Assembly: GCA_963677485.1 (NCBI GenBank)
Contig: OY781964.1
Coordinates: 1,056,001-1,120,000 of the forward strand
Direction: 5' to 3'
From: Armatimonadota bacterium
GTDB taxonomy: Bacteria > Armatimonadota > HRBIN16
DNA: 64,000 nt
The notes under the pieces are model-generated. The model was not told the origin of the DNA. It saw nothing but the letters and a program-made list of their open reading frames with translations, and ran no database searches. A program made the position numbers and the translations under genes. Shown here in pieces: positions 9,995 through 15,937 of this stretch (its first letter is position 1; each line of letters begins with the position of its first letter).

Positions 9995-10300
9995 CACGCG
10001 AAGACGCGAATGGGAAGACTTCATCCACAGATGACGCAGATGGCACAGATTAGGCGGTTGGATGCGCGAGGATTCGGTATGGTAGCGATCCTAATTGGCT
10101 ATGTCCGGGGCGGTCTTTCAGTACGCTGGCGATGACAGAAGGCTATAGACCGCGCCGGTCTGGTTCGAAGGCGGGTGGCTATCGGCACGAAGGATTAAGG
10201 GATTCATTTCTGAACCACGAATGAACACGAAGGAACACGAATGGAGAGGATGCATCCACAGATTACGCAGATGGCACAGATTAGGCGGTTAACGACACGG
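9995..10300. repeat. Intergenic repeat-module cluster, reverse orientation relative to 315-752
   Basis: CACGCGAAGACGCGAA, two copies of ATCCACAGATnACGCAGATGGCACAGATTAGGCGGTT, ATTGGCTATGTCCGGGGCGGTCT, AACCACGAATGAACACGAA. Confidence 0.85.
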
Positions 10301-10338
10301 GTTTGTCTGCAGATATCCAGCGTAGATACTGTGGCTTT

Positions 10339-10344
10339 TGTCAA
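10339..10344 (-). promoter_or_regulatory. -35 box (TTGACA) of the IS110 circle-junction promoter
   Basis: After joining the ends: TTGACA-17 bp-TACGCT, with the -10 at 12133-12128, pointing into the bridge-RNA region. Confidence 0.8.
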
Positions 10345-10596
10345 GTCCCCAGGGGCAAATCTGGGGATTTGGACCTGAATATCAGACACTGGCTCTAGAC
10401 CACGTAGAATAACGTTAATGTGATGTTTGTGGCATATAGACCAAACCTGGATCCGCGTCAGAAACAGGCTCAGATGGCATCAGTTGGTCCGTAGCACCTC
10501 ACATGACGCTCGGAGTCGCGAACGGACGTGCGACATCTTCGTGGCTTCGAAAGATATCGTTATGCTTCGATGCGTGCTATCGGCAGACTGCCGCAG

Positions 10597-11889
10597 CTAG
10601 GATACTGGTGTCAGAACCCTCGGTTTGTTGCCCACCCGACTGCGCGATGGCCGGTTTCGGGATGCGGGCCGACCACCGCCGGCAGGAGTGGGCTCATTGG
10701 TGGGATTTCCATCCACGCATCCCCGTCTTGGAACGCTCACGTCCAGCCCAGGATCATTGCCTACACCGGCTATATCATGGGCCGCTCCGGCACGATCCTG
10801 GACATGTCCGTTCGCGTCGGTCAGCGGTTGCTGGTTGGCCGCATTTGAAGCTTGTTCGATGCCGAAGTTTGGATCATATGGCTGACGGCTGATTAATACC
10901 GACCACATGAGCACCAGCTGCTTGCGCATGATTGCGCACCGGACAACTCGCTTGGACTTCGGTTTCTTATTGGGATTCTTTACCAAATTCGGATGCTGCA
11001 GTTCCTTCACGAAGTCGTGCATGCTCTGGCCAAGCTTTTTCGACTTACCGTTGACCATCTTCACCACAGTGCTCGATCCACAGTAGAGTAATGTCCGCAT
11101 ATATCGGTCACCCATCTTGGATATGGAGCCGTCGTATGTCTTGCAGCTTCCTGACCGTTGCGGGCAGGGGTTCATTCCGAAATAGCGCGCGACCGCTTTC
11201 GATGTTTCAAATCGTTTAGCATCACCGATTTTCGCAAGGAAATAGCTTGCTGTGACGTCGCCGATACCCGGAATGCTCTTCAGCAGAGCCATATCTTCGG
11301 TCATCTGCGGTGAACTCATCACAAGCTCTTTGATCTGAACATCAAGCTTTTTGATGCCCATGTCATGAAAAGCGATCATCTCGTCCAGCACTGTGCTCCG
11401 CGTAAGCCGACAGCTTTGGCGCTGGGCGATCGCCTGTCTGTGTTGCACCAGCATACGGCGGTCATTGGTGTAACCAATAAGCGCATCATAGCATGCTAGA
11501 CGAGGGACATAGAGTGAGACATTGTGACTTTTCACATAGTCAGCGATTAGCACGCTGTCAGAGCAGTCCGTCTTTTGTTCCCAGCCTTTGGCTTTGCGGT
11601 GATAGAGAACCCGTTTTGGCTCCAGTTGGACAGCATCGTGCTGGTGCTCGTAGAGGTAATCAAGCAGCGGTCGGCTGTAAGGCCCGGTGGCTTCAGCCGC
11701 ATACAAGGCGGGAGTTCGGGTAAGCTTCTTCACCCATGACAACAACTCCTTGTATCCGGCCTTGTTGTTCTTGAACTCCTTATGGTCTATCGGCTTGTGC
11801 GATGAACCTAATACAGACGCGTCAAACGTCAATTTCGAGATGTCGATCCCGACATAATGGATGTAGATTTTGTCTTCAACTTCGTGCAT
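10597..11889 (-). CDS. IS110 DEDD recombinase/transposase with a long low-complexity C-terminal tail
   Basis: VGIDISK, AAEATG, KTDCSD (DEDD), SIPGIG, catalytic Ser in QRSGS, GSISKMG; ATG 11889 preceded by GGAG. Confidence 0.95.
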   Translation of the reverse strand: MHEVEDKIYIHYVGIDISKLTFDASVLGSSHKPIDHKEFKNNKAGYKELLSWVKKLTRTPALYAAEATGPYSRPLLDYLYEHQHDAVQLEPKRVLYHRKAKGWEQKTDCSDSVLIADYVKSHNVSLYVPRLACYDALIGYTNDRRMLVQHRQAIAQRQSCRLTRSTVLDEMIAFHDMGIKKLDVQIKELVMSSPQMTEDMALLKSIPGIGDVTASYFLAKIGDAKRFETSKAVARYFGMNPCPQRSGSCKTYDGSISKMGDRYMRTLLYCGSSTVVKMVNGKSKKLGQSMHDFVKELQHPNLVKNPNKKPKSKRVVRCAIMRKQLVLMWSVLISRQPYDPNFGIEQASNAANQQPLTDANGHVQDRAGAAHDIAGVGNDPGLDVSVPRRGCVDGNPTNEPTPAGGGRPASRNRPSRSRVGNKPRVLTPVS

Positions 11890-11924
11890 GTGGTAATCTC
11901 CAGTTGGTAGTGATTGATGGTGCA

Positions 11925-12120
11925 ATCAACCAAATCAGCCTAGCGAACACGGGGTTTTCTCCCAAGATACTGTTCGATATGGGTTGATTGGGAGAAGGAT
12001 GCCTATCTACGTCACGGTGTTTTCCACCAGGGGCGGTTCCGGCATCCAATCCTTCTCCTTCACCCCCAGCTAAGGGGTGAGATTAGCTCCCCGACTGCTT
12101 TTGGTGTCCGGGGAGCTCAC
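11925..12120 (-). ncRNA. Putative IS110 bridge RNA with target-binding and donor-binding loops; boundaries approximate
   Basis: GGATGCC..GGCATCC stem encloses ACCGCCCCT (12037-12029) and GACGTAG (12013-12007). A second loop contains ACAGTATCT (11973-11965) and CTAG (11943-11940). These match the element's own target and donor junctions. Confidence 0.8.
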
Positions 12121-12276
12121 CATATATAGCGTACTAGGGGCGATTCGCGAATCGCCCTTCTAGCGTCGGTGGTGTGCTGTGTATCTACGAATAGACACGA
12201 ACGTCGGAACGTAAAAGGCATCTGCTGCCTCCGGTATTCGGACCTCAACACGTTCACGTGAATTGTAAATGCCATC

Positions 12277-15908: not shown

Positions 15909-15937
15909 TAGAAGGGCGATTCGCGAATCGCCCCTAC
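15909..15937. repeat. GTAG-family REP-like palindrome TAGAAGGGCGATTCGCGAATCGCCCCTAC (intact copy of the IS110 target)
   Basis: GGGCGATTCGCGAATCGCCC palindrome plus CTAC; exact reverse complement of the reconstructed site at 10322/12136-12162. Confidence 0.9.

Follow-up and report, generated by a model that had tools for sequence, protein, structure and literature searches.

The window analysed here, a 64,000-nt stretch of the genome of an Armatimonadota bacterium (G000; one contig of 5.22 Mb, 54.4% G+C), carries on its minus strand an insertion sequence (IS) of the IS110 family, which we call IS-A. The element comprises a left non-coding end (LE), an open reading frame (ORF) for a recombinase and a right non-coding end (RE), and it stands directly after a repetitive extragenic palindrome (REP) of the host genome (Table 1). 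The LE is predicted to fold into a two-loop RNA in which one loop resembles the REP and the other resembles the element's own ends. We regard IS-A as very probably an autonomous IS110-group, IS621-type insertion sequence with a bridge RNA aimed at REPs. It is a further member of this described kind and not a new type of system.

Twelve copies of IS-A with identical ends are present in G000, and the limits of the element are set from them. On the minus strand the left junction reads ...GAATCGCCC-CT/AGTACGC, with the LE starting at 12135, and the right junction reads ...CCACAGTAT-CT/ACGCTGG, with the RE ending at 10324. All copies start AGTACGCTATAT right after ...CGCCCCT and finish ...CCACAGTATCT; CT stands at both junctions in 12 of 12, and there is neither a target duplication nor a pair of terminal inverted repeats. 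The original prediction, made from the letters of the window, had placed an element at 10319-12162. An element does lie there, and every string quoted for it is found on the minus strand, while the limits given took in flanking DNA, 27 nt of REP at the left and 5 nt at the right.

Ten copies have the full length of 1812 bp and an intact 430-aa ORF. The other two, at different loci (G000:1369195 and 1872954), measure 1796 bp and share a 16-bp deletion (element positions 685-700) that shortens the ORF to 165 aa. The same deletion at two loci means that a defective copy itself moved or was duplicated, and it was presumably mobilised in trans. This deletion aside, the copies differ from that of the window by 0-3 substitutions, and the LE is 100% identical in all 12. 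At window position 10458 (element position 1678, in the RE) the window copy has A on the minus strand where the other 11 copies have T. In sequencing run X1, IS-A collapsed into a single 1820-nt contig with a depth of 117, against about 9-14 for the flank contigs, which agrees with roughly ten copies. None of 17 other genomes of the family had the DNA for the predicted bridge RNA, and blastn of IS-A against 5,426 complete E. coli genomes gave no match.

The recombinase matches PF01548 (DEDD_Tnp_IS110; E 1.8e-21) and PF02371 (Transposase_20; E 4.4e-22), both above the curated cut-offs, as well as the NCBIfam model NF033542, 'IS110 family RNA-guided transposase', with a score of 180.6 bits (cut-off 140). 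Its nearest solved structures are the transposases of IS621 (chain 8wt6, E 2.5e-28, residues 10-274) and ISCro4. Residues D16, E66, D108, D111 and S246 align with D, E, D, D and S of the IS621 chain, and they are invariant in an alignment of eight sequences, the IS-A recombinase and seven relatives. These would be the residues published for IS621 as D11/E60/D102/D105/S241, if the deposited chain is offset by +2 (328 versus 326 residues). Relatives at 95, 84, 83, 68 and 61% identity come from short metagenomic contigs only; the next are a 400-aa group at 41-42%, and all else is at or below 30%. Among 301 sampled genomes of the phylum, the recombinase is found at E <= 1e-50 in two, G000 and G003, a sister genome of the same genus. 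The domains, the catalytic residues, the ten intact ORFs and the guides that match flanks and ends (below) all bear out the suggestion that this is an apparently intact orthologue of the bridge recombinases.

Table 1. Features of IS-A in the window, with related elements and sites elsewhere
Feature	Position	Strand	Remarks
IS-A, IS110-family element	10324..12135	-	1812 bp including the RE-side CT (one CT counted)
Left flank, REP palindrome GGGCGATTCGCGAATCGCCC plus GAA lead	12138..12162	-	3' arm is the left target (LT)
CT core, left junction	12136..12137	-	precedes the LE in 12/12 copies
LE, with predicted bridge RNA	11890..12135	-	246 nt
Predicted bridge-RNA segment in LE	11923..12123	-	single and consensus folds
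Predicted target-binding loop module	11990..12058	-	stem, LTG, cap stem-loop, RTG; from the fold
Left target guide (LTG), ACCGCCCCU	12029..12037	-	9 nt including core; DNA ACCGCCCCT
Right target guide (RTG), GUAG (12007-12010) with possible extension GAC	12007..12013	-	GACGTAG; reverse complement CTACGTC
AU at the handshake-guide position, target loop	12005..12006	-	complementary to donor positions 6-7 (A, T); putative, by analogy with the available text of PMC11208158
Predicted donor-binding loop module	11923..11989	-	from the fold
Left donor guide (LDG), ACAGUAUC	11966..11973	-	8 nt; next base U matches core T; equals RE end ...ACAGTATCT at 10324-10332
Right donor guide (RDG), GUUCGCUAG	11940..11948	-	DNA GTTCGCTAG, contains CTAG
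Recombinase ORF	10597..11889	-	430 aa; core family profile ends at residue 336
ORF tail, residues 337-430	10597..10881	-	no coding-type constraint
Conserved sense-strand hairpin in ORF tail	10705..10838	-	134 nt, imperfect
RE	10324..10596	-	273 nt; TTGACA at 10339-10344
Right flank ACGCTGGATA	10314..10323	-	right target is AC(G)
IS-B, intact copy	G000:C1:1296596-1298385
IS-B, interrupted copy	G000:C1:2667677-2672037
IS-A-type solo sites	G000:C1 near 264919, 3436711, 1990837, 2010706, 2851068, 2382963, 2869711
IS-B-type solo sites	G000:C1 near 3495660, 2307948, 1083738, 4144509
G003 solo sites	L159, L162, L163, L166, L167, L174

The predicted bridge RNA and its guides

The minimum-free-energy fold of the 246-nt LE (-88 kcal/mol, z -3.45, with none of 200 shuffles as good) consists of two 5' stem-loops followed by two modules, each made of a long stem, an internal loop and a small stem-loop cap. 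Both modules are kept in a consensus fold of five sequences, where 9 of 62 pairs are compensatory, with both sides changed. Two 9-mers, one in the internal loop of each stem-flanked module, link this RNA to DNA outside it. The first is ACCGCCCCT, the DNA form of the LTG, which the flank of the window's own copy (ATCGCCCCT) matches at 8 of 9 positions. The second is ACAGTATCT (11965-11973), the LDG plus core T, which is identical to the RE end over 9 of 9 positions. When the LE was shuffled 200,000 times, ACCGCCCCT arose in 0.12% of shuffles, ACAGTATCT in 0.08% and both together in none. The two match counts are those given in the original prediction, and its two-loop layout of LTG, RTG, LDG and RDG likewise held, in that the fold supports it and the IS621 arrangement can be matched position by position.

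The RTG starts 27 nt after the start of the LTG, and GU linkers precede both the RTG and the RDG. Read in the manner of IS621, the RDG GUUCGCUAG has a GU that pairs with donor positions 14-13, a skipped UC, and a GCUAG that pairs with positions 12-8 of CT-AGTAC, so that a G sits opposite donor T12. The target specified by the guides is ACCGCCC-CT-AC(GTC), and the donor they specify, ACAGTAT-CT-AGTAC, is what results from joining the RE and LE ends.

By homology, then, the LE would encode a bridge RNA of about 200 nt that directs a DEDD/Ser recombinase. The target loop, through its LTG ACCGCCCCU and its RTG GUAG, would pair with both strands of ACCGCCC-CT-AC(G), a sequence that in one of the genome's REP families forms the 3' arm and the GTAG head. 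The donor loop, through its LDG ACAGUAUC and an RDG of the form GU..GCUAG, would pair with the joined ends of the excised element, and recombination at the CT core would insert IS-A without duplicating the target.

This scheme closely follows IS621, for which guide residue numbers are given segment by segment in PMC11208158; our comparison rests on published text, of which excerpts were available, and not on an IS621 sequence. According to these excerpts, the two elements share a two-domain DEDD/Ser recombinase, an LE-encoded bridge RNA with target and donor loops, and a CT core. They also share a 9-nt LTG, a 4-nt RTG GUAG, the 27-nt spacing and the GU linkers (PMC11208158), an 8-nt LDG and a split RDG of 2 nt, 2 skipped nt and 5 nt with a G opposite T12 (PMC11208158), a target made of a REP 3' arm and GTAG head, and a -35 box in the RE. 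IS621 too inserts into REPs (PMC11208160, as excerpted), and its wild-type target there is ATCAGGCCTAC. Against ACCGCCCCTAC for IS-A, four of seven left positions differ and CTAC is common. Donor positions 6-14 of IS621 are A, T, C, T, T, G, T, A, T (PMC11208158, in the portion available) and those of IS-A are A, T, C, T, A, G, T, A, C; positions 6-9 and 11-13 are thus the same and 10 and 14 differ. A likeness between the two donors had been proposed, and it stands for positions 6-14 (7 of 9 identical), the stretch over which it could be compared.

IS-A also departs from IS621 in several respects. The recombinases are about 30% identical in amino acids over 265 residues, and the IS-A ORF, with an unconstrained tail that runs over a conserved hairpin, has 430 aa against 326 aa. 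The RNA has an extra 5' stem-loop and a shorter donor-loop cap and is about 200 nt long, against 177 nt, and the non-coding ends total 519 bp in IS-A and 298 bp in IS621. More broadly, Durrant et al. assign a predicted bridge RNA to 85.7% of IS110s (PMC11208160, as excerpted). The Pseudomonas putida elements ISPpu10 and ISPpu9 resemble IS-A in being multi-copy and in using one fixed REP position, going by the accessible text of two reports (bioRxiv 10.64898/2026.03.19.712850; PMC12288879). ISPpu10 is said in the same preprint text to need both guide complementarity and a hairpin at the target (bioRxiv 10.64898/2026.03.19.712850). For IS-A, the corresponding observation is that 11 of 12 insertions follow a perfect hairpin. 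ISPpu10 is also described, in the text available, as having no 5' stem-loop, and IS-A has two. Elements of the IS1111 group, the seekRNA elements, share the recombinase family and the RNA-guided principle with IS-A. Their inverted repeats are subterminal and their guide RNA lies in the RE, according to the excerpts of PMC11208160, whereas the guide RNA of IS-A lies in the LE. A literature search for Armatimonadota together with IS110 found no paper, and IS-A therefore adds a natural bridge-RNA element from a phylum for which we found none in print. To a specialist IS-A is otherwise ordinary, apart from the ORF-tail hairpin and the solo sites described below.

Insertion sites and sister elements

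No two of the 12 copies share a locus, and their right flanks are unrelated; what nearly all the loci have in common is a REP hairpin. The left target with core is exactly ACCGCCCCT in six copies, has one mismatch in five, and has three mismatches or a one-base bulge in one. In six copies the match between guide and REP reaches 11 nt (GAACCGCCCCT). The right flank begins AC in 11 copies and AT in one, with ACG in five. Eleven of the 12 insertions lie directly 3' of a perfect REP stem of at least 6 bp. Taken with the four of seven left-target positions that are unlike IS621, these flanks uphold the original prediction that the target guide is retargeted to the GTAG repeats of its host. It had also named observations that would count against it, namely other copies with different ends or at sites unrelated to the guides; the genome-wide comparison was run, and the 12 copies share their ends and have flanks that fit the guides.

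Site occupancy in the genome follows the match to the guide. Perfect ACCGCCC-CT-AC sites number six occupied and three empty, as against four occupied and 144 empty among sites with one mismatch (odds ratio 72, p 9e-7). When the empty sites are limited to those with a stem of at least 6 bp, one perfect and 65 one-mismatch sites remain (odds ratio 97.5, p 6e-6). IS-A has nearly exhausted its perfect sites. The occupancy within a single genome reads out mismatch tolerance, with 6 of 9 perfect and 4 of 148 one-mismatch sites filled. The REP family used, a 20-nt perfect palindrome followed by CTAC, was searched for with the REP pattern of the window, allowing up to 3 substitutions, and has 34 sites, 10 with the element and 24 empty. 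In all, G000 has 535 sites at which a hairpin is followed by CCCT, of which 202 go on with AC (GTAG on the other strand).

Several REP families are densely spread in this genome, all ending ...CGCCCCTAC(G), and there are 228 NCGCCCCTAC sites; examples in the window lie at 12138-12162 and near 15913 (G000:1071913). Relative to the sister species, conservation of the intergenic regions is poor, and they are rich in repeats.

A second IS110 element of G000, IS-B, has a recombinase 42% identical to that of IS-A and is present in two copies; a variant, B', occurs nine times in G003, and there are further ones on three metagenome contigs. IS-B shares with IS-A the RNA architecture, the RE end ACAGTATCT, the place of TTGACA and the conserved hairpin. 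It differs in an LTG aimed at other REP families, in a right donor of TGTAT and not AGTAC, and in an ORF that stops at 387-400 aa. Its donor positions 6-14 are identical to those of IS621 at 9 of 9, as the latter are given in the excerpted text. The interrupted copy is split by another mobile element, a 2563-bp repeat with nine genomic copies and two ORFs of 539 and 262 aa, whose architecture may be IS21-like.

Each of these elements has an LTG that fits its own flanks. The LTG of IS-B, CGCGCCCCU, matches the flank of the intact copy, CGCGCCCCT, at 9 of 9 positions and that of the interrupted copy, CCTGCCCCT, at 7 of 9. In B' the LTG GUCAUCCCU, read in three copies and assumed for all nine, stands beside the flank GTCATCCCT in six of nine copies, with one mismatch in the other three. 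At locus L122 an LTG of GUGGCCCCU faces GTTGCCCCT (8 of 9), and at L123 one of CGUGCCCCU faces CAUGCCCCT (DNA CATGCCCCT; 8 of 9). In this small sample, then, five LTG variants each fit their own flanks at 7-9 of 9 positions, and the LTG varies while the RNA stems stay. Neither the RTG region, ACGUAG, nor the right flank, ACG, varies among these elements. The RDG changes together with the start of the LE at two positions, being AUUUACAAG in IS-B for CT-TGTAT and GUUCGCUAG in IS-A for CT-AGTAC. In a distant Pectobacterium element the loop segment ACGGTTAC matches that element's own RE end, with the exact junction left uncertain by the contig ends. The sister elements of this one genus, with a common scaffold and LTGs tuned to different REP families, form a compact natural series.

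Expression, activity and competing explanations

We infer that RNA is made from the LE, that a promoter forms across the joined RE-LE junction, and that IS-A is active now, this last because the 12 copies, the two with the deletion aside, differ by only 0-3 substitutions. TTGACA ends 15 nt before the element end in IS-A, IS-B, B' and L122 alike.

Several observations weigh against an autonomous, RNA-guided element. Read by eye, the RE-LE junction offers TTGACA as a -35 box (6/6), a 17-nt spacer and TACGCT as a -10 box with 3/6 matches, which falls below the 4-of-6 rule of our promoter scan; IS-B has TATGCT (4/6). In the integrated state the same scan found no sigma-70-like site upstream of the LE. 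This would fit weak expression from integrated copies, such as is reported for IS621 in the accessible part of a 2026 paper, and is an argument from silence. Contigs from three RNA-library runs, X15 and X16 of one study and X17 of another, cover the LE (window positions 11770-12159, 11825-12158 and 11961-12160). They come from relatives at 90-97% likeness, run about 24 nt into a REP flank across the integrated left junction, and could be DNA. The same runs gave no cover over 10428-11039, to which no meaning attaches. The covariation in the fold draws on five sequences in two clades only. Rfam returned no match for IS-A, nor for five other IS110 loci, and the blank for these suggests that the library is probably without such a family. 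As for the DNA, the site of the window's copy has one mismatch to the guide, the copy at G000:2863786, with its three mismatches or one-base bulge, is without a perfect stem, and two of the 12 copies carry the frameshifting deletion.

Two other explanations were considered. The LE might be only a structured 5' untranslated region (UTR) regulating transposase translation, in which the 9-mers that resemble the REP and the ends are captured fragments and not guides. Such a leader is known from ISPpu9, where a long 5' UTR folds and inhibits translation (PMC12288879, in the text available), and no separate small RNA is evident for IS-A in the contigs from public runs. We nevertheless find this account very improbable as a full explanation, as the 9-mers lie in internal loops with the spacing of IS621, in IS-B, B', L122 and L123 the stems are kept and the 9-mers change together with the flanks, and site occupancy tracks the guide match. 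Roles as a 5' UTR and as a guide are, moreover, not mutually exclusive. Equally hard to credit is the idea that IS-A is a dead relic whose copies spread by duplication or by REP-mediated rearrangement and not by RNA-guided insertion. Two copies are indeed frameshifted, and no RE-LE circle junction appears in the public-run contigs. Against this idea stand the 12 separate loci whose right flanks are unrelated, the full ORF and all catalytic residues in ten copies, the 0-3 substitutions between copies and junctions that are every one exact at CT.

The ORF tail and solo left junctions

The recombinase ORF continues for about 94 codons past the end of the family profile, and in protein alignments this tail seems conserved. 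The substitutions tell otherwise. Nucleotide differences between IS-A and IS-B are spread evenly over the codon positions of the tail (18/19/18) and favour the third position in the core (135/118/199); for B and B' the counts are 4/10/5 and 28/23/75. We considered the tail as a new protein domain and rejected this reading: a family search with the tail found no match, the AlphaFold model has a predicted local distance difference test (pLDDT) score below 50 over residues 342-430, third positions show no bias, and variants differ in where they stop, after 387, 400 or 430 codons. Identity between IS-A and IS-B is instead highest, at 72-80%, at element positions 1303-1392, compared with 62-68% in the guide loops. 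The hairpin formed here is far more stable on the sense strand (z -5.46, 0/200 shuffles) than on the antisense strand (z -2.49), and a homologous stretch occurs in L017, L043, L122 and L123. Of the hairpin's 51 pairs, six have changed on both sides, and three G-U pairs do not vary; the overall covariation term of +0.44 is not supportive. We read the hairpin as a nucleic-acid element through which the ORF merely passes; of the annotated 430 aa, about 340 are probably the core of the product and the rest read-through.

The genome also holds what we call solo sites, which consist of a REP hairpin and CT followed by no more than the initial 6-8 nt of a resident element's left end. Seven REP-type sites in G000 read LT-CT-AGTACG(C)(T) without an element, two of them within one duplicated repeat, and three or four read LT-CT-TGTATG(C)(T), the left end of IS-B, again without an element. 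G003 has six solo sites besides its nine full copies. Three hits to the solo pattern in 23S rRNA are due to chance and were set aside. A literature search for footprints, scars, remnants or solo sites of IS110 or bridge-RNA elements brought up one relevant preprint, and the passages of it do not mention such sites.

Several origins were considered. A decayed element downstream was rejected, local alignments within 260 nt being no better than shuffles at 11 of 11 sites. The left end of a hitch-hiker was rejected too: at 10 of 10 sites no ACAGTATCT (up to 1 mismatch) followed by AC occurs within 6 kb, the sole one-mismatch ACAGTATCT-like 9-mer, at one of the ten, is followed by GT, and no hitch-hiker like Ssr9 with matching ends was found beside solo sites. 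A tail intrinsic to the REPs is unlikely, as among the 535 hairpin+CCCT sites only the tails of the two resident elements recur in this shape. Deletion between TACG(C) microhomologies suits the IS-A solo sites and not those of IS-B. Of the orthologous sites in G003 and G004 one could be aligned, in G003, where it is an intact ...CCGCCCCTAC (REP...CTAC) whose right side shows changes beyond a simple insertion. In IS621 the bottom-strand cut lies left of the core, going by the excerpted text, and so does not explain a break 6-8 nt to its right.

The solo sites look like scars or abortive products, and no explanation that we tested fits all of them. As ideas, we consider template switching between REP copies in replication, an abortive top-strand transfer of the kind that two preprints propose in their accessible portions, and deletion at microhomology. 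A broader conjecture, which we hold to be rather unlikely, is that solo sites record incomplete or aberrant bridge recombination and that the 134-nt hairpin is a cis element of transposition, for example one that starts the complementary strand on a single-stranded circle. Recent copy-out models, as far as their available text goes, would need such a start of synthesis. The ORF tail with its hairpin and the solo sites are leads on the disputed IS110 cycle, where single-stranded are set against double-stranded circles and copy-out against cut-out.

Just to the right of IS-A, at window positions 10238-10291, lies a short dispersed repeat carried by many contigs, with a depth of 180-240 in two metatranscriptome runs and 179 in a genomic run.

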